A stretch of DNA of 64,000 nt from Nitrosopumilaceae archaeon (GTDB lineage: Archaea; Thermoproteota; Nitrososphaeria; Nitrososphaerales; Nitrosopumilaceae), in the NCBI GenBank assembly GCA_965214835.1, contig CBDCCK010000002.1, positions 2,176,001 to 2,240,000 of the forward strand, in the 5' to 3' direction. The translations under genes and the position numbers were made by a program. The notes under the pieces are model-generated. The model had not been told where the DNA came from and did no database searches. It saw only the letters and a list, made by a program, of their open reading frames with translations. Of the stretch, positions 1,733 to 40,800 are shown one piece after another. The stretch's first letter is position 1. Every line of letters starts with the position of its first letter.

Positions 1733-2216
1733 TCCGAAAGCATGCGCCCCTTGTACCGTGGAACGTCAAGACCTGCCGCATCTGGCGGGCAGCTCCCCAA
1801 TGCTACCGTAGCCATCACACCTTCCACGTGAATCAGGTTCGCGATCAGGGCACTGCCGCCTAACACCCTGCCCTCCATGCTAACATCCGCGATAGGGATT
1901 TCTGTTTGGCGCCTTGACCTGCGCGTGCGTGTACCGGGGATGGGATCTTGCCCCTCAGGCGACACCGGCAGTCTGGGGTCTTTACCACCGTATCCCCTGC
2001 GCCGTACCACGGGGTGCGCCATCTTGCCGCGCAGGCCATCAGGCACCGCAAGCGCCTTTATGCCTTCTGCGGTACGGGGCCTTGCGTATCTTGCTCGCAA
2101 TTACAGGGTGCCTCAGCATGCACTCGGCTAGACTGCTGGCAGGCTCCATGCCCGGATGCAGTAGCCTGTTGAACACATGATAAAAACGCCCCCGCCGTAG
2201 CTAGGGTGATGGATCA

Positions 2217-2345
2217 ACCCCTCGTTATGCATGTGCTTCGCGCACTACCTGTTGAATGGGGATATCCGAGCTGCTGTGTTCCTGTGCTACGCGCACTGAT
2301 GGATGAATGCAGCTTCTGATCTGTCAAACCATATCCAAAAGGAGG
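2217..2345 (+). ncRNA. Candidate IS110 bridge/seek RNA (boundaries approximate)
   Basis: TGATGGAT (2297-2304) equals left flank 2207-2214; CTTCTGATC (2313-2321) is the reverse complement of right flank 3562-3570; potential stems GGATAT/ATATCC and GCTGC/GCAGC. Confidence 0.6.
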
Positions 2346-2358
2346 TGAAAGAAAAGGA

Positions 2359-3436
2359 TTGAGAAGCATAGGAATAGACATTGGAAAGAGAAAATGCGCA
2401 GTGTGCGTCATCGACGCCAAGGGACACGTGCTAGAGGAGGGCTCGTATAACAACACGTACAAGGAGGCATCAAAGCTTGCTGCACGACTGAAAAAAGAGT
2501 ACAAAAAGTGCCAGGCCGCGTGCGAGTCAACGGGCAACATGTGGCTAAAGACGTTCAGGGCGTTTGAGGATCAGCATATCCCCATACTGCTTGCAAACAC
2601 CCTCAAGATGAAGATAGTATCAGAGACCAGTGTAAAGACTGACCCGATAGACGCAAGGAAGATAGCCGACACGCTCAGGGCCGGAATGATACCACGATGC
2701 TACGTGGCATCAGCAGAGCTGAGGGATGTCAGGGAGCTGATGAGGTACAGGATACGGATGGTACAGGAGAGGACCGCAGTCATAAACGGGCTGCACAGCT
2801 TGGCTTGACAAGTACGACATAGCCATAGATGCATCCACGATGTACTCCAAGAAGGCCATACGGAAGATCTCCGATACCAGGCTGAGCATGCCAAACGATG
2901 ACAGGATACTGGCAAGCTGCACTAGGAGGATTGTACACGTCACAGAGGAGATAGACCAAGCAGGGGAGGACATAGGAAGACAGGCAGGATCGAACGAGGA
3001 TGCCAAGCTGCTGTTGAGCATGACGGGAATAGACACCTTTGCAGCAATGCTGCTGATAGCAGAGATCGGTGACATAACCAGGTTTCCATCGCCGAACCAG
3101 CTTGTGTCCTGGGCCGGCATGTGTCCCCGGGTGTACCAGTCGGGGGATCGCGAGTACCACGGCCACATGAAAAAGGATGCAAACCGCAGGATCAACTGGC
3201 TGATGATCCAGATAGCCAACGTCGCCGTACAGCACGACGACAGGATGAGGGAGTTCTACGAGAGGGTCCGCAAAAGGAACGGCAACAACCACGTCATAGC
3301 GATAACGCATGTTGCAAACAAGATGCTCAGGATAATCTGGCACATGCTGACGACAAAGACTGCGTATTCATCGCGCAATGCTGCCCTGTACGACAAGAAG
3401 ATCAAGAGGGTGACAGAACTGGCGGGAACGGCATAG
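2359..3436 (+). pseudogene. IS110 DEDD recombinase, +1 frameshift near 2803
   Basis: GIDIGK, CESTG, KTDPIDA (DEDD) in ORF 2359-2808; AEIGDITRF, YQSG, VANKMLRIIW in ORF 2840-3436; removing one G gives LHSLLDKYDI; GGAGGTGA SD upstream. Confidence 0.9.
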
Positions 3437-3982
3437 GATTGCCACCTTCCTCCCCCACCCACCCACCCAATGATCCGCCCGCACCTCGGCAGGTGCGACA
3501 GGACTGGCTCATGCGTATTGCTAGCGTTAGCTATAAAGCACGGCCCGGCCGACTAGGCACGGATCAGAAGACGAAAGGAACGTCGCCATGTTACTGGCGG
3601 GCGTTTTACCATGGATGCATAACCGTGCCTGAACGCGTAAAAGTAGCCAGTTTTTCGTGCCTAAAATCGGGGTTATGCAACAAGCTAGGATGCAGCGAGT
3701 GTACATAAATCCCGATGCACCCTCAGGCTTTGGTAAAGCTCTTGCATCCGGCCCCTCATTTTTGCCGGATCTTCGGCCTGTCTTATTTTTTGATTGCATC
3801 GATGCCTGGCAGGCAGCGCTGCATCTGAGATGCCCCGATTCTTACCATGCGTGCCGCTTACGAGGGCGTCATGTGCCTGGGAGTGACTGCAACGAGAAAA
3901 TTACGAGCACTACAATAATTGTCATACTAGTCAATTAAACTTGTTCATAACTGATTATCAGCCCAAACTACAACCTTTATCA

Positions 3983-6900
3983 TTGGTACACGTCAAGAAG
4001 GTGGATATTTTTGGCTTCAAGTCGTTTGGGTTCAAGAACACCACCGTCAGTTTTGAGCCCGGCCTGGTGTCGATTTCCGGCCCTAACGGGTCGGGAAAAA
4101 GCAACATACTGGATGCCATTATCTTTGCAATGGGCGAGAACCGTCCCAAGGTCATGAGGGTGGACAGGCTTCGCTCGCTGCTGCACGATATAGAGGGGCA
4201 AAGACGCGGACCAAAGCTGGCCCGCGTAAACGTCACCTTTGACAACTCTGATCGCAAGATCCCCGTGGATTCTGATACCGTGGATATTACCAGGGAGATG
4301 GACGACAAGGGGGACAATACCTACTATCTTAACAAAAAACAGACCAACCGCAGCCGTATCCTAGACCTGCTTGATGTTGCAAACGCCGGACTCAACCAGC
4401 TAAATGCAGTACAGCAGGGAACCGTAACTAGAATCTCCGAGTTTTCTCCTGAGGAAAAAAGGCAGACCATTGAGGATCTGATAGGCCTTTCATACTTTGA
4501 TCAAAAAAAGACCGAGGCCGTAAAACAGCTTGACGAGGCTGACAGGCGGCTGGAGATTGCGCTGGCAAGAATGGGGGAGATCAAAAAGCAAATTGACGAG
4601 CTAGAGGAGGAGCGCAACCAGAAGCTTCGCTACGACGTGCTGGAAGGGGAGATCAGCAGGCTAAACGCAATATCTGCGGCAAGCCAACTAAAAACGATCA
4701 GGGCATCAAAGTCCTCCAAGGAACAGGATCTCGGCGCCGCCGTGGCCGACGGCAGGCGGCTTGATCAGGGGCGGACTGCAATCCGGGATGAGATCAAAAA
4801 ACTCGACGCGGAAAAATCCAGCTTTATGGAGGAGGTAAACGCATACAACCAAGCCAAGGCAACGATTGACTCTGAGCTTAGCGCTGCGATGCGGGCCTAC
4901 GAGGAGGTCAACAGCACCGTGGTGGCCGCAGAGAAAAGGGCCTCCCAAATCGCGCAAAGAGTCCCGGAGGTCAAGGACTCCGTCCAAAGACTGTGCGATG
5001 AGCGCGGCCGGATTGGCTCACAGGCATCTGAAATCAAAGACACCGTGTCTCAAATCGAGGCGTCCCGGGGGCAGATTGACTCTGAGCTCCGGGAGCTAGA
5101 CGACCTGCTCTCTGACGTGCTGGGCCGGCAGTCTGAGATCGCCAAAAAAAAGACCGAGGTTGACGGCAAGATTGGCGCACTGACTGAAAAGCTCAACGCC
5201 AGCAGGGTGGCGCTATCCGGTGCAGAGTCTGAAAAAAACGACACTGACAAGAAAATCTCGTCTACCGTGTCTGCCCAGTCACAATACAAAGACCAGTCAC
5301 GAAAATTCTCAGGGCTTTTGTCAAGCTTTGAGAGAAAGATTCGCAATCATACCAGCTCCATCCGCGAGATAAAGTCCCAGCTGTCCGCCTACGACTCCAA
5401 GCGCGCAAAAATCCAGGGCGAGATTGACGAGATCAATCTGATCTTGGAAAAGTCCACAAAGGCAGCTGCGCAGTATGACACGAAAATCCGCGTAGTCAAA
5501 AGCATAATGCACGAGGATTATTCCATTGCACAACTGCACGAGGACGGGCAAAGACTCGGAATAGACGGACTGGTCTATAAAATGATCTCATGGGATAAAA
5601 AATACGAGCGGGCCGTCCTGGCAGCCGGCGCCGACTGGATAAAGGCCTTCGTTGTCCAGGACTTTGCGACCCTTCTTGGCCTGGCAGAGGTGGCGCGAGA
5701 AAAGAGGCTTCCAAAGCTCAAAATCATCCCCATGGAGGCAATTCCAGACTTTGAGATGTCGCTGCCCGGGGGCGGGGGCGTTCTAGGCGTACTGTCTGAC
5801 TTTGTCAGATCCGGGCCCGAGCATGCAAAGCTGAGGACGTTTTTGTTTGGAAACGTCGTCCTAGTCGACTCGAGGGAGGCAGCCTACAGGGTCTCAAAGT
5901 CCGGTTATCGCGCAGTCACGATGGACGGCGAGCTGTTTGAGGCAAGGGCCAGCGCCGTCATAGTGGACATCAACTCCAAGATCTCAAAGCTTACAAAAAT
6001 CATAACACTGAGCTCGTCCGTTGACGGGTTGCTCCAGTCGATATCCCTGCTGAAAAAATACATAATCAAAAAGAGGCACGGGCTCAGGAGGATAGAGGAC
6101 TCCATCTCCTCTACTAGGGAACGCCTTGGGCTGTCCGAAAAGGAGCTGGCCTCGACTGAGCAGAGCTATTCTGACCTGATGCGGAAGGCAACTGAGATCT
6201 CCGAGATGCTTGCGACCTTTGAGCGCCGGCTGTCTGGATACTCCAAAAGGAGGGAGCTGCTCGTGGCAACTGCCACCAGGGAGGCGTCCGTCATCGAGTC
6301 GCTCGGTGAGCGCATTGCAATGATCCGGGCAGACTATGCAGACGGGGAGCCGTCCAGAGTTGCCAGCGAGCTGGAGAGGATCAGCGAGGGCAAGTCCTCG
6401 CTGGAGCGGAGGCGGACCGACATCCTTGCCGAGCTGGATCGCCACTCCTCGAGACTGGCAGCCGTTAATGCCAACGAGGCAAAGGCGCAGGGCCAGATTG
6501 CCAGCCTTGGGGATGAGATATCGTCCCTCGGGGAGGAAAAGGCCGAGCTGGAGGCCAAGATTCAGGACTCTTCCCGGCTCCGGGAGGAGCACAATGCAAG
6601 GCTCGTCCAGCTCAGGCAAAGGGAGCAGGATCTGATTGCCACCTCTGGAACGTCGGTATCGAGACTCAGGGAGTACGATGACCGGCTGCGTGAGCTAAAC
6701 GACCAGGACAGGGCCATGACACGGCAAATCGGCACCCTTGAGCGCCGATCTGACTCCCTGTCGCGTGATCTGAGGGATCTCGGCGAGCGCGAGGCCGGAC
6801 TGCTCAAAACCCTGGACTCTTTTGGATTTGACGAGAACACCGATACATTTGACGTCGGACCACTGCTGGCAGGCCTGCAGTCCGAGCAGCGCTCCCTTAC

Positions 6901-7504
6901 CGCACTCAACGCCAAGGCCCCAGAGACGTACCTTGAGGTCTCTACCGGGTACCGCTCGATGTCTACCCGGAAGAACTCGCTTGAGGAGGAACGCAACTCC
7001 ATTGTCAGGTTCATCGAGGAGATTGAAAAGGACAAGCGGCAGACCTTCCTTGACGCGTTTGACAGGGTAGACAAGGAGATCCGGAAGATCTTCACAAAGA
7101 TGACCGGGGGCAATGCGTGGCTTGAGCTGCAAAGCGAGGACGACATCTTCTCCTCTGGAATATCCTACCTGATTCAGTTCCCAAACAAGCCAAAGCGCGA
7201 GTCCACCTCGATTAGCGGCGGCGAGAAGACCCTTGCGGCCATCGTGTTTGTGCTGGCACTGCAAAGGCTCAAGCCATCGCCGTTTTACCTGTTCGACGAG
7301 GTAGACGCGCACCTTGACGCGCCAAACTCCGAGCGCCTCTCCAGCATTTTGGAGGAGCGGGCGAGGGAAAGCCAGTTCATCATGGTCTCCCTCAAGGACT
7401 CTGTAGTCCAAAAGGCCAGCCTCATCTACGGCGTGTTCCCAAAAAACGGCGTCTCAAACGTCGTGACCTACAAGGATCGACGCGTGCCCAAGGCCGTCCC
7501 ATAG
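3983..7504 (+). CDS. smc: Chromosome segregation protein SMC
   Basis: GFKSF, Walker A GPNGSGKS, coiled coils, hinge, SGGEKT signature, FDEVDAHLD Walker B; probable TTG start at 3983. Confidence 0.97.
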   Translation: MVHVKKVDIFGFKSFGFKNTTVSFEPGLVSISGPNGSGKSNILDAIIFAMGENRPKVMRVDRLRSLLHDIEGQRRGPKLARVNVTFDNSDRKIPVDSDTVDITREMDDKGDNTYYLNKKQTNRSRILDLLDVANAGLNQLNAVQQGTVTRISEFSPEEKRQTIEDLIGLSYFDQKKTEAVKQLDEADRRLEIALARMGEIKKQIDELEEERNQKLRYDVLEGEISRLNAISAASQLKTIRASKSSKEQDLGAAVADGRRLDQGRTAIRDEIKKLDAEKSSFMEEVNAYNQAKATIDSELSAAMRAYEEVNSTVVAAEKRASQIAQRVPEVKDSVQRLCDERGRIGSQASEIKDTVSQIEASRGQIDSELRELDDLLSDVLGRQSEIAKKKTEVDGKIGALTEKLNASRVALSGAESEKNDTDKKISSTVSAQSQYKDQSRKFSGLLSSFERKIRNHTSSIREIKSQLSAYDSKRAKIQGEIDEINLILEKSTKAAAQYDTKIRVVKSIMHEDYSIAQLHEDGQRLGIDGLVYKMISWDKKYERAVLAAGADWIKAFVVQDFATLLGLAEVAREKRLPKLKIIPMEAIPDFEMSLPGGGGVLGVLSDFVRSGPEHAKLRTFLFGNVVLVDSREAAYRVSKSGYRAVTMDGELFEARASAVIVDINSKISKLTKIITLSSSVDGLLQSISLLKKYIIKKRHGLRRIEDSISSTRERLGLSEKELASTEQSYSDLMRKATEISEMLATFERRLSGYSKRRELLVATATREASVIESLGERIAMIRADYADGEPSRVASELERISEGKSSLERRRTDILAELDRHSSRLAAVNANEAKAQGQIASLGDEISSLGEEKAELEAKIQDSSRLREEHNARLVQLRQREQDLIATSGTSVSRLREYDDRLRELNDQDRAMTRQIGTLERRSDSLSRDLRDLGEREAGLLKTLDSFGFDENTDTFDVGPLLAGLQSEQRSLTALNAKAPETYLEVSTGYRSMSTRKNSLEEERNSIVRFIEEIEKDKRQTFLDAFDRVDKEIRKIFTKMTGGNAWLELQSEDDIFSSGISYLIQFPNKPKRESTSISGGEKTLAAIVFVLALQRLKPSPFYLFDEVDAHLDAPNSERLSSILEERARESQFIMVSLKDSVVQKASLIYGVFPKNGVSNVVTYKDRRVPKAVP

Positions 7505-39990: not shown

Positions 39991-40800
39991 TCAAGATGCA
40001 CCTGATGGTCGACGCATACACCAAGCAGGTGCTGGCAGTATCCGTCACAGACGAGGCAGTCAGCGACAGCACGGAACTGCCGGCACTGCTTGAGGCGGCG
40101 GCCAGGAGCATCAAGGAAGAGGAGCAGCAGGACTGCCCCGACAGCGCGGACGCAGTAAAGATCCCCAACATGCTTGCAGACGGGATATCGCCGCTGACCC
40201 TGCTCGGCACCGGAGCGAATAAGGATGCACCGGGCACGATCCTGCTTGCAGACGGCGGATACGGCTCAAGGAAAAACGTATCCGAGTGCCACAAGCGCGG
40301 CATAAGGCCGCTCATACGGCTCTTGACAAGCTGCAATGCAAAGGGCAAGGGCACCGGCGACAAGTGGGGCATGCTTGTGCGAAGCCAGCTAGGGGACGGC
40401 CACGAGGTGCCGGTTGGGGATCTGTCAAAGGAGGAGAGGCAGGAGAACCTACGGTACTGGAAGAGCACGGTAGGCTACGGTACGAGGTGGATCGTCGAGA
40501 TCGTGATATCTGCCATAAAGCGCATGTTAGGCGAGGACGTAAAGGCCCTCAGGTGGTCCAATATAGTGCAGGAGGTAAAGTTGAGGATATGGCTGTACAA
40601 CAAGTGGATCGCAGAGGCGGTGGCTGCCATGTGGGAACCGAGCGCCGGTAGTGATCTTGGCGGATTGGATGGGTTCTAGTCGGAGGTATGTGGTCACGTC
40701 CCCTTGTTAGCTAGGAACGAAAATCACAACCATGCATCTAATTCGTGCCTGACTGATGGGGGTAGGTGACCTCGTACAGTCGGAGTTATGCAACAATCTA
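39991..40800 (+). mobile_element. 5'-truncated IS5-family (IS903-like) element
   Basis: KMHLMVD, LADGGY, YGTRWIVE(6)K motifs; end GTTATGCAACAATCTA. Confidence 0.85.
40686..40777. mobile_element. 92-bp IS66-derived MITE (family C) inside the IS5 right end
   Basis: Ends GTATGTGGTCACGT / AGGTGACCTCGTAC match the IS66 at 11479-13141; 8-bp TSD AGTCGGAG at 40678-40685 and 40778-40785. Confidence 0.9.

Follow-up and report, generated by a model that had tools for sequence, protein, structure and literature searches.

An insertion sequence of the IS110/IS1111 superfamily in a Nitrosopumilaceae-related archaeon with a predicted bridge RNA that matches its target and its own ends

Bridge RNAs, also called seekRNAs, were described in 2024. 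The guide-RNA insertion system is already known from bacteria, and the element described here carries what appears, from its sequence, to be the signature of that system in an archaeon. As far as the accounts drawn on here extend, the assays on these RNAs used bacterial IS110 and IS1111 elements. In the seekRNAs of IS1111-type elements, the complement of the top strand comes first whereas, in those of the IS110 type, the order is reversed, according to the sections of PMC11187229 used here. In the same sections, the subterminal inverted repeats of IS1111 elements are usually 11-13 bp long and the terminal extensions are asymmetric, with 7 bp at the left and 3 bp at the right end (PMC11187229). 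A few exceptions are listed there, namely ISMtsp17, with an upstream non-coding region, and ISHvo10 and ISAcp5, with two long non-coding regions each, and those sections do not describe their RNAs (PMC11187229).

The window, that is, the whole stretch of 64,000 nucleotides analyzed here, contains an insertion sequence proper of 1446 bp at positions 2172-3617 (plus strand). With a probability of about 0.9, this is one of several copies that a member of the IS110/IS1111 superfamily has in the genome of a Nitrosopumilaceae-related archaeon, and the element moves by bridge-RNA (seekRNA)-guided recombination. In the predicted mechanism, an RNA of about 120 nt (2207-2326) would be transcribed in the left end, upstream of the recombinase gene and in the same direction, and would be bound by the recombinase. 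This RNA would pair through its first loop with the target, the sequence TAGCCTGT-TG-CATAAC found at the ends of an IS5-like transposon and of its MITEs, and through its second loop with the joined ends of the element (...CCATGGA-TG-AACACA...), as in a circular intermediate. The strands would be exchanged at the shared TG.

The guide order, the subterminal inverted repeats and the 7/3-bp extensions of this element are of the IS1111 type and the RNA lies upstream of the gene, an assignment that is read from these traits and not from recombinase phylogeny. With the IS1111 group (ISEc11, ISKpn4, ISPa11, IS4321/IS5075), the element shares the DEDD recombinase, the presence of subterminal inverted repeats, the 7-bp left and 3-bp right extensions (provided that the core is assigned to the left end) and a guide strand complementary to the top strand that comes first; as with IS4321/IS5075, the terminal inverted repeat of a different transposon serves as the insertion site and a single orientation is used. 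The differences from this group are that the RNA is located upstream of the recombinase gene rather than downstream, that a long non-coding region is present at either end (187 and 179 bp) and that the host is an archaeon. Conversely, the likeness to IS621 (Durrant et al. 2024; Hiraizumi et al. 2024) consists in an RNA encoded by the left end in the same sense as the gene that follows it, a target loop that precedes the donor loop, two guide strands per loop that overlap on a 2-nt core and a target footprint of about 13 nt. Relative to IS621, both loops have the opposite strand order, with the 5' strand paired to the top strand on the right; the RNA is shorter, about 120 nt as against about 177 nt, with a 10-bp stem that joins its 5' and 3' ends, and the core is TG instead of CT. 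Furthermore, the IS110 group (IS621-like) has subterminal inverted repeats of 2-3 bp or none, in contrast to the 17-20 bp found here. Among PDB entries, the recombinase matches only IS621 and ISCro4, weakly and only in its C-terminal part (E ~1e-8), and the best plasmid match is a Haloarcula 'IS110 family transposase' with 34.6% identity; the names given to the plasmid matches do not decide between the two groups. Short non-autonomous derivatives with the ends of the insertion sequence, presumably moved in trans, are also present, as in the case of MITEPpu9 of ISPpu9; however, the derivatives of about 380 bp in this genome keep the whole bridge RNA with their own guides whereas MITEPpu9 has a different small-RNA gene, as far as the part of PMC12288879 used here describes it.

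The 3.2-Mb genome contains at least eight near-identical full copies of the element, the window copy included; these eight copies of the main group are 98-99% identical and have therefore spread recently. The seven other copies match the window copy from 2161/2162 to at least 3623, with unrelated DNA outside. The shared sequence and the divergent flanks define the true ends of the element as 2172 and 3617, flanked by the TG core: the body spans 2172-3615 and is followed by one core TG at 3616-3617, and a TG is found on both sides of the body at occupied sites as opposed to a single TG in the empty site. The sequence immediately to the left, TAGCCTGTTG (2162-2171, plus strand), is the left part of the terminal inverted repeat of the host MITE and consists of the left target and the core TG (2170-2171); at this position, all eight main-group copies carry TAGNCTGTTG. 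In the same eight copies, the left flank is TAGNCTGT-TG and the right flank is TG-CATAAC, in a single orientation. The host site, TAGCCTGT-TG-CATAAC, is the 16-bp terminal inverted repeat of a MITE of about 80 bp that belongs to an IS5-like transposon. The uninterrupted 16-mer TAGNYTGTTGCATAAC occurs 26 times genome-wide, as the end of the IS5-like element and its MITEs, and there are 12 left and 10 right junctions of the form described for the eight copies. Insertion is site-specific, without a long target duplication, and involves a short TG core common to donor and target. The 8-bp target-site duplication of the host MITE itself, GGATGCAG, can be read directly at 2154-2161, with the second copy at 3688-3695; other members of this MITE family have different 8-bp duplications (e.g., CGGTTTCC at locus L002). 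The remainder of the host MITE (3618-3687, plus strand) starts with the right target CATAAC (3618-3623) and ends with the other terminal repeat (3672-3687, minus strand).

The subterminal inverted repeats, ATGATAAAAACGCCCCCGCC at 2177-2196 on the left and its partner GGCGGGCGTTTTACCAT at 3596-3612 on the right, are 17-20 bp long and imperfect, with small indels, and the same feature is found in 12 relatives. Over 13 elements, the mismatches in this repeat amount to 19 G-U and 23 A-C, so the repeat appears to be a DNA-level feature; in view of these mismatch types, an RNA hairpin across the joined ends, for which folding pairs 3577-3613 with 2176-2215, is not claimed. The terminal extensions are 7 bp on the left (TG+AACAC before ATG...) and 3 bp on the right (GGA after ...CAT), which requires that the core copy be counted on the left. 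An A-rich box within the left inverted repeat (2180-2186) is a possible TATA box for a start at 2207 and is not conserved in the relatives. The circle junction implied by these ends would be CCATGGA-TG-AACACATG. The assembled genome contains no match to the circle junction or to a tandem junction, and, among the matches listed for the contigs of four sequencing runs, there is neither a circle junction nor a contig that bridges the element. The one listed contig joint with intervening letters, from 3687 to 2162 via CGGTTTCC, corresponds to the arrangement beside L002 in which two elements abut and is not a circle. Weak evidence for the left boundary also comes from contigs that diverge on the upstream side of 2162, 2167 and 2170.

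The predicted bridge RNA (2207-2326, plus strand, 120 nt) is encoded upstream of the recombinase gene and is delineated by the minimum-free-energy structure and covariation. It consists of a 10-bp closing stem P1 that joins the 5' and 3' ends of the RNA (2207-2216 with 2317-2326) and two stem-loops, each with an internal loop, the target-binding one at 2218-2261 and the donor-binding one at 2270-2313 (all on the plus strand). The single-sequence fold has a z-score of only -2.05. Among 14 in-genome variants, 97.1% of the cells pair and five pairs change on both sides; in 500 shuffles, neither the pairing nor the covariation score ever attains the real value. The covariance model derived from the in-genome variants matches 25 of 30 loci around recombinase homologs in other genomes, the source of the relatives used here, given that the related-locus search of the genome contigs yielded a single locus (L031). 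In the loci with the gene on the plus strand, these matches end at most about 50 nt upstream of the gene start; in these same plus-oriented loci, searched on both strands, none of the matches listed lies downstream of the gene. In the 25 relatives, 95.1% of the cells pair and 22 of the 27 pairs change on both sides, compared with 34-44% pairing for slid partners; having been fitted to the model, this alignment is biased in favor of the structure. Within a scaffold that is conserved elsewhere, variation is greatest in the four loop strands. The RNA model matches 17 of the 151 genomes sampled in the class Nitrososphaeria. An Rfam search produced three matches with E values from 5 to 8.6, all far under the gathering scores and none to a curated family that would fit; the bridge RNA is therefore named by analogy and not from a curated model. 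Among the papers searched, none describes in its main text a bridge RNA of Nitrososphaeria or a MITE carrying a bridge RNA; supplementary per-element predictions, such as the tables of Durrant et al., may cover relatives of this element.

The guides track the flanks and the ends of each element. The two loops are arranged alike, each with a 5' strand that pairs right of the core with the top strand and a 3' strand that pairs left of the core with the bottom strand. Specifically, the 5' guide of the target loop (GUUAUGCA, 2224-2231, plus strand) is complementary to the top strand of TG+CATAAC at 3616-3623 whereas the 3' guide (CCUGUUG, 2248-2254, plus strand) pairs with the bottom strand left of the core; GTTATGCA and CCTGTTG in this loop correspond to the actual flanks. 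In the donor loop, the 5' guide (UGUGUUC, 2275-2281, plus strand) is complementary to G+AACACA at the left end (2171-2177), and the 3' guide (AUGGAUG, 2299-2305, plus strand) is identical to the right end with the core (3611-3617), that is, TGTGTTC and ATGGATG match the real ends of the element. The donor 5' guide pairs only with the G of the core (…UUCC and not …UUCA), which counts against this reading. Where the right end is ATAGATG, the donor 3' guide becomes AUAGAUG. The 3' guide heptamers found in this genome (CCTGTTG, GTAGTTG, ACTTCTG, TTTGTTG and TCTGTTG) each lie beside the matching flank, and in the diverged copy L010 the 5' guide is CATTTTCA and the right flank is TG-AAAATG. Together, the four guide strands predict a 13-nt junction. 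With a threshold of at least 11 matching positions out of 13, 24 loci of the relatives show this junction on the left side in 19 cases, on the right side in 15 and on both sides in 12. Guide/flank covariation across copies and homologs, which the first-pass annotation of this DNA had proposed as a check, holds for the guides as redefined here: when the junction is anchored on the donor sequence only, the target guides of a locus match its own flanks at 6.92 of 11 positions on average, compared with 2.86 for the guides of other loci. No foreign guide set scores as high in 15 of the 24 relative loci; the other nine are not top-ranked, partly through mis-anchoring. There are also mismatches within the genome: the right flank of L009 is GATGTC where its own guides predict AAAATG, and several short derivatives (e.g., 655670 and 3124520) lie at flanks unmatched by their target loops.

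The first-pass annotation had placed the element at 2217-3560, bounded by GGATCA, with GGTGATGGATCAGAAG as the empty site and with TGATGGAT and CTTCTGATC as the target guides of a very compact loop. The strings are indeed present, GGATCA at 2211-2216 and 3561-3566, TGATGGAT at 2297-2304 and CTTCTGATC at 2313-2321, the latter being the reverse complement of 3562-3570, and their orientation fits the IS621 scheme in which the same-sense guide comes first and the reverse complement second. By themselves, they are no rarity in the window: TGATGGAT, which occurs also at 2207-2214, has four matches in the window versus 2.9 expected (30 of 100 shuffles reach four), and GATCAGAAG has two versus 0.72 expected (10 of 100 shuffles reach two). 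Both copies of GGATCA are internal because the seven other copies share the sequence from 2161/2162 to at least 3623, that is, 55 nt to the left of 2217 and at least 57 nt to the right of 3560, and the short derivatives cross 2217 unbroken; the comparison of copies puts the ends at 2172 and 3617, the very kind of outcome that the annotation had named as counting against it. The reconstructed empty site has no genomic instance: its 14-mer TGATGGATCAGAAG is found once in the 3.2-Mb genome, where it is the RNA tail of a different copy read on the opposite strand, and the actual target is the transposon end TAGCCTGT-TG-CATAAC. In the covariation-supported fold, the supposed left target guide (2297-2304) is the 3' strand of the donor loop, matching the true right end CCATGGA-TG, with its other copy (2207-2214) located in the closing stem, and the supposed right target guide is the 3' tail of the RNA, made up of the linker and the 3' strand of the closing stem. 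The target loop thus has to be moved to 2218-2261, and the donor loop, reported as not confidently visible, is the one at 2270-2313. What stands is the recognition of an IS110 element with a DEDD recombinase and a bridge RNA encoded in the non-coding left end; the proposed ends, target and guides do not, and the reading built on them deserves practically no credence. It is also highly improbable that the left-end structure is a mere 5' leader that affects translation or stability of the recombinase whereas the protein and the subterminal inverted repeats choose the target. The location of the RNA directly upstream of the ribosome-binding site and start codon and the lack of a terminator-like T run after it would be compatible with such a role, as would the structured 5' UTR that inhibits translation in ISPpu9 (PMC12288879, in the part used here). 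However, the four loop strands, the most variable within the conserved scaffold, vary in concert with the flanks and ends of the element that carries them, a coupling that pure regulation leaves unexplained.

The gene downstream of the predicted bridge RNA encodes an IS110-family DEDD recombinase in two parts. The N-terminal part (2359-2808, plus strand; DEDD_Tnp_IS110, Pfam PF01548, E 7.5e-29) stops at an in-frame TGA (2806-2808) which, according to the frameshift alignment, follows one extra G in CAGCTTGGCTTGAC; the C-terminal part (2840-3436, plus strand; Transposase_20, Pfam PF02371, E 2.1e-26) is in the +1 frame, which is open from 2786. The single frameshift proposed in the first-pass annotation is real but it is not a private lesion of the window copy because 10 of the 11 full-length copies share the same extra G. 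The only open gene, of 359 codons, is found in L010, which is 85% identical to the window copy and encodes the intact paralog P0001 of 359 amino acids. In a 92%-identical copy, both half-ORFs are open. For the window copy against the copy at 1519219, at a dS of 0.16-0.22, dN/dS is 0.29 in the part before the shift and 0.30 in the part after it. These values suggest continued purifying selection on both halves, a signal that gene conversion among the copies could obscure.

Because of the frameshift, the window copy may not make the recombinase by itself. The chances appear to be even that the frameshifted copies are non-autonomous and are moved in trans by the intact L010 recombinase, similarly to the ORF-less short derivatives: the existence of such derivatives carrying the RNA, the restriction of the open gene to L010 and the recent spread of the eight nearly identical copies point in this direction whereas the low dN/dS on both sides of the shift, between two frameshifted lineages, points against it. 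These same values, along with the half-ORFs that are both still open in the 92%-identical copy, would instead fit a programmed +1 recoding at GCU-UGA-C (2803-2809) that reads through the shared frameshift and yields a low level of full-length recombinase. The in-frame UGA is positioned exactly where a +1 slip restores the frame, and the site presumably resembles known +1 sites. Nevertheless, such recoding seems unlikely, there being no obvious slippery tRNA re-pairing, and the genes of the homologs in other genomes are uninterrupted.

The right end contains two additional features. One is a BRE/TATA-like box, AGCGTTAGCTATAAA (3523-3537, plus strand), which faces outward through the right end, is conserved in close relatives and, in our judgment, might serve as a promoter. 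The other is the motif ACGGATCAGAAG (3559-3570, plus strand), which includes the second GGATCA and is complementary to the RNA tail (2313-2324) over 12 of 12 positions, with one G-U pair. This complementarity between the left and right ends amounts to 9-12 of 12 pairs in all 10 elements in which both landmarks were located, out of 33 examined, and the motif covaries with the RNA tail in L036, L037 and L038. When the longest perfect run is compared, the difference is weak (7.29 for own and 5.82 for foreign tails); the position-anchored count is clearer and covers the same 10 of the 33 elements. The complementarity joins two parts of the element and not a guide with its target. A speculative and rather doubtful reading of this arrangement would be a guide-RNA gene split across both ends of the element, with the promoter box in the right end followed, about 21-24 nt on, by the motif that pairs with the left-end RNA tail. 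If so, transcription would proceed from the right-end motif, and only an excised circle or a tandem copy would yield an RNA that runs from the right end over the junction and whose two guide loops are closed off by a long helix; excision would then license both the maturation of the guide RNA and the expression of the recombinase. The bacterial counterpart of this licensing is a promoter that forms where the ends are joined; in the split-gene reading, an RNA helix formed across the junction would take over this role. Such a layout would be intermediate between those of IS1111, with the RNA in the right end, and IS110, with the RNA in the left end.

Altogether, the sequence signature of guide-RNA insertion, namely the fold, the guides and the flanks, now extends to ammonia-oxidizing archaea and their relatives. 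For genome annotation, the boundaries of the element are corrected and about 25 repeats are accounted for. The short, stem-closed RNA of about 120 nt may interest engineers of compact recombinases. The element also provides what would be a natural example of an RNA-guided mobile element that homes on the inverted repeat of another one, along with non-autonomous derivatives that carry guides of their own. Traits that separate the two published groups are mixed in this family, which combines ends and guide order of the IS1111 type with the RNA position of the IS110 type, a combination relevant to the evolutionary route by which the RNA passed from one end of these elements to the other.

The ends of the insertion sequence can be redefined by comparison with its other copies in the genome. 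A search of this genome with 2150-3650 yielded 45 matches, among them seven further full-length copies that are 98-99% identical to the one in the window. In all seven, the shared sequence starts at 2161/2162 and reaches 3623 or beyond, exceeding the ends assigned in the first-pass annotation (2217 and 3560) by 55 nt on the left and 60 nt or more on the right. The GGATCA copies taken there for the boundaries are present at 2211-2216 and 3561-3566 but, given that the sharing extends outward of them in all copies, both are internal. Copies of 85-92% identity share the region 2168-3617, and the flanks of all eight main-group copies align as ...TAGNCTGTTG / AACACATG...CCATGGATG / CATAAC..., the slashes marking the junctions. 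In uninterrupted form, the 16-mer TAGNYTGTTGCATAAC is present at 26 places in the genome; compared with it, the occupied sites duplicate only TG, so the element consists of 2172-3615 plus one TG, with the exchange at TG.

Two kinds of sequence account for the 26 uninterrupted sites, namely both ends of an IS5-like element of ~1.2-1.5 kb, whose 352-aa ORF matches DDE_Tnp_1 and DDE_Tnp_1_5, and the ends of its ~80-bp MITEs. The host of the window copy is such a MITE (2162-2171 + 3618-3687), with the second inverted repeat at 3672-3687 and an 8-bp flanking duplication, GGATGCAG, at 2154-2161 and 3688-3695. The orientation relative to the host repeat is identical in all eight copies. The terminal repeat of the IS5-like family is the preferred landing site of this IS110-family element. 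[quoted passage not shown] The IS5-like (DDE_Tnp_1) family, with 16-bp terminal inverted repeats (TAGNYTGTTGCATAAC), ~80-bp MITEs and 8-bp target duplications, was seen in the window at 3618-3687 and 40785-40800 and in two other copies, L062 and L063. The transposase of L063 (160-1374, minus strand) contains an acidic segment of 18 residues (KSIKKEEEQDCPDIVDTI) repeated four times in tandem, a repeat absent from the 352-aa transposase of L062. At L002, another locus of this genome with a copy of the insertion sequence (about 2580232-2580260), the IS-bearing MITE directly adjoins another of the family's terminal repeats, with the 8-bp CGGTTTCC between them, so same-family elements cluster or nest. 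In the window, the insertion sequence occupies the intergenic space between ORFs 629-1732 (367 aa) and 3941-7504 (1187 aa), which by eye resemble myo-inositol-1-phosphate synthase and an SMC-type chromosome protein, respectively.

Once the true ends are known, the left non-coding end (2172-2358) reads as a predicted bridge RNA (seekRNA); throughout, we infer RNA production and catalysis from the sequence. The closing stem pairs TGATGGATCA (2207-2216) with 2317-2326. The first stem-loop has an outer stem, CCCC/GGGG (2218-2221 with 2258-2261), an inner hairpin, GTGC/GCAC (2233-2236 with 2242-2245), and an internal loop whose 5' side, GTTATGCA (2224-2231), is the reverse complement of TG+CATAAC, i.e., the core and the right flank, and whose 3' side, CCTGTTG (2248-2254), matches the left flank and the core. 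The second stem-loop repeats this architecture, with 2270-2274 and 2309-2313 as its outer stem and 2284-2287 and 2293-2296 as its inner hairpin; its loop strands are TGTGTTC (2275-2281), the reverse complement of G+AACACA at the left end, and ATGGATG (2299-2305), which matches the right end and the core. Given these matches, the first loop would read the target and the second one the joined ends. RNAfold, run on 2203-2330, recovers the closing stem and both stem-loops (-42.9 kcal/mol, z -2.05).

The strings previously proposed as the left and right target guides, TGATGGAT at 2297-2304 and CTTCTGATC at 2313-2321, are present as reported, the former with a further occurrence at 2207-2214 and the latter being the reverse complement of 3562-3570. 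Their positions, however, correspond to the 3' strand of the donor loop and to a 3-nt linker plus the start of the 3' strand of the closing stem, respectively; both strands of this stem contain GATC because GATC is self-complementary. Counted over the whole window, neither k-mer stands out, with 4 matches against 2.9 expected for TGATGGAT and 2 against 0.72 for GATCAGAAG. The reconstructed empty site is what a perfect RNA tail (the 3' end of the bridge RNA) would have as its complement, and its single occurrence in the genome is the tail complement in a short derivative at 655516. The first-pass annotation, whose observations hold in part, was right in kind, in recognizing a bridge-RNA insertion sequence, but wrong about the ends, the target and both guide assignments.

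In an alignment of 14 in-genome variants, including a sister family 65-70% identical, 97.1% of the cells pair and 5 pairs are changed on both sides; none of 500 shuffles attained the observed pairing or covariation score, and 25-53% of the cells pair in slid controls. When a covariance model derived from these variants was applied to 30 loci surrounding recombinase homologues of other genomes in the class, 25 matched (all except L048, L055, L058, L060 and L061); at loci with the gene on the plus strand, the match ends no more than ~50 nt from the gene start. In the 25 relatives, 95.1% of the cells pair, compared with 34-44% in slid controls, and 22 of 27 pairs are changed on both sides; this alignment was fitted to the model and so leans towards the structure, yet the double changes are numerous. 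Variability is highest in the four loop strands, whereas the scaffold is conserved. With the model, 25 copies are detected in the genome under study; across the class, 17 of the 151 genomes sampled have a match, representing 10 of 48 genera, a tally that includes one unpublished genome. In three relatives (G117, G148 and G072), the RNA model has more matches (16, 10 and 14) than there are recombinase matches listed, of which at most six per genome were scored, so that RNA-only derivatives may be common elsewhere.

Guide/flank covariation, proposed as a check in the first-pass annotation, was recovered over the genomic copies and homologues, with own guides outscoring foreign ones, although exceptions exist. 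Within the genome, the guide CCTGTTG is accompanied by the flank CCTGTTG, GTAGTTG by (C)AGTAGTTG, ACTTCTG of the sister family by ACTTCTG, TTTGTTG and TCTGTTG of short derivatives by the identical heptamers, and CATTTTCA of L010, the paralogue with an intact gene, by the right flank TG-AAAATG; in another copy, L009, the right flank disagrees with the copy's own target loop, and several short derivatives likewise disagree with theirs. For the relatives, the 13-nt junction predicted from the four loop strands was sought 5' of the RNA and 3' of the gene. Of 24 loci, 19 have a left-hand match at 11 or more of the 13 positions, 15 have a right-hand one and 12 have both. These matches always adjoin inverted-repeat sequence of the CATGATAA.../...TTAACATAG type. 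As a control for circularity, the junction was anchored on the donor sequence alone, and 11 flank positions were scored against the target guides of every locus: own guides matched 6.92 of 11 positions and foreign guides 2.86, and in 15 of 24 loci no foreign set equalled the own one. The failures include loci that were mis-anchored or truncated, namely L039, L041 (left side), L043, L053, L057 and L059.

The complementarity between 2313-2321 and 3562-3570 reported earlier is real and not due to chance, but it links the RNA tail to a right-end motif. In the window copy, this motif (3559-3570) pairs with 2313-2324 at 12 of 12 positions and starts 21 nt past a conserved box, AGCGTTAGCTATAAA (3523-3537). 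Box and motif could be located by pattern in 10 of the 33 elements examined, and each of these 10 has, 18-23 nt downstream of the box, a stretch of 12 nt that pairs with the element's own tail at 9-12 of 12 positions. Motif and tail show matched changes, for example GGATCGGAA with TTCCGATCC in L037 and AGACCGGAA with TTCCGGTCT in L036; a cruder motif-tail statistic is weakly discriminating. The motif also pairs with the tail when the joined ends are folded. The box may be read as an archaeal BRE/TATA element, and the spacing would put a transcription start at the motif. The extended end-to-end pairing contains 19 G-U versus 23 A-C mismatches and, with no excess of G-U, is treated as a DNA inverted repeat, an RNA-level reading being set aside.

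The ORF encodes, as annotated, an IS110-family recombinase, in two pieces that both match Pfam domains (PF01548 at 2359-2805 and PF02371 at 2840-3433); a PDB search returned only weak C-terminal matches, to ISCro4 and IS621. The frameshift between the pieces is genuine, one extra G (CAGCTTGGCTTGAC versus CAGCCT-GCTTGAC) after which the frame stops at TGA 2806-2808, but it is not confined to the window copy: 10 of 11 full-length copies share it, and the sole intact gene is in L010. Frameshifted copies may be moved in trans by this intact paralogue; alternatively, the frameshift may be read through. Between two frameshifted lineages (dS 0.16-0.22), dN/dS amounts to 0.29 before and 0.30 after the shift, which fits continued selection on both recombinase halves. 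The in-frame TGA of the shared frameshift (2800-2808) lies at precisely the point at which slipping by +1 would bring back the reading frame.

At least six elements of ~380 bp lack the ORF but retain both ends, the left one including a complete bridge RNA (C2 of the same genome, at 639991, 10110, 2955986, 655670, 3124520 and 2139579). The target guides of some differ from those in the full copies. Across the derivatives, flanks and guides agree only in part. Several adjoin a further repeat starting (C)TCGCCTAATTCGCC; the copy at 2955986 carries a guide, ACGCGACA, that comes close to matching this repeat, so the repeat may be a second natural target. The sister family (C2, at 2665850, 2137438, 1315097 and 685687) has the same RNA scaffold, with flanks matching its guide; none of its copies in this genome has an open full-length gene.

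Compared with known systems, both loops pair the top strand with their 5' strand, which is the IS1111 order, the top-strand complement coming first in IS1111-type seekRNAs as described in PMC11187229. The element and its relatives also have subterminal inverted repeats (2177-2196 versus 3596-3612 in the window), and its terminal extensions are 7 bp and 3 bp if the core is counted at the left, the same source giving 7-bp and 3-bp extensions as the rule for IS1111 members (PMC11187229). Unlike in IS1111 elements, the RNA precedes the gene, and the non-coding ends, of 187 and 179 bp, are both long, although PMC11187229 mentions rare IS1111 members whose non-coding region is upstream (ISMtsp17) or that have two long ones (ISHvo10, ISAcp5). 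Given the IS1111-type ends and polarity combined with an RNA upstream of the gene, the element is filed as bridge/seekRNA-like with an IS110-type gene order. Altogether, its identification as a bridge-RNA insertion sequence of an archaeal clade is well supported, and its layout is a hybrid of IS1111 and IS110.
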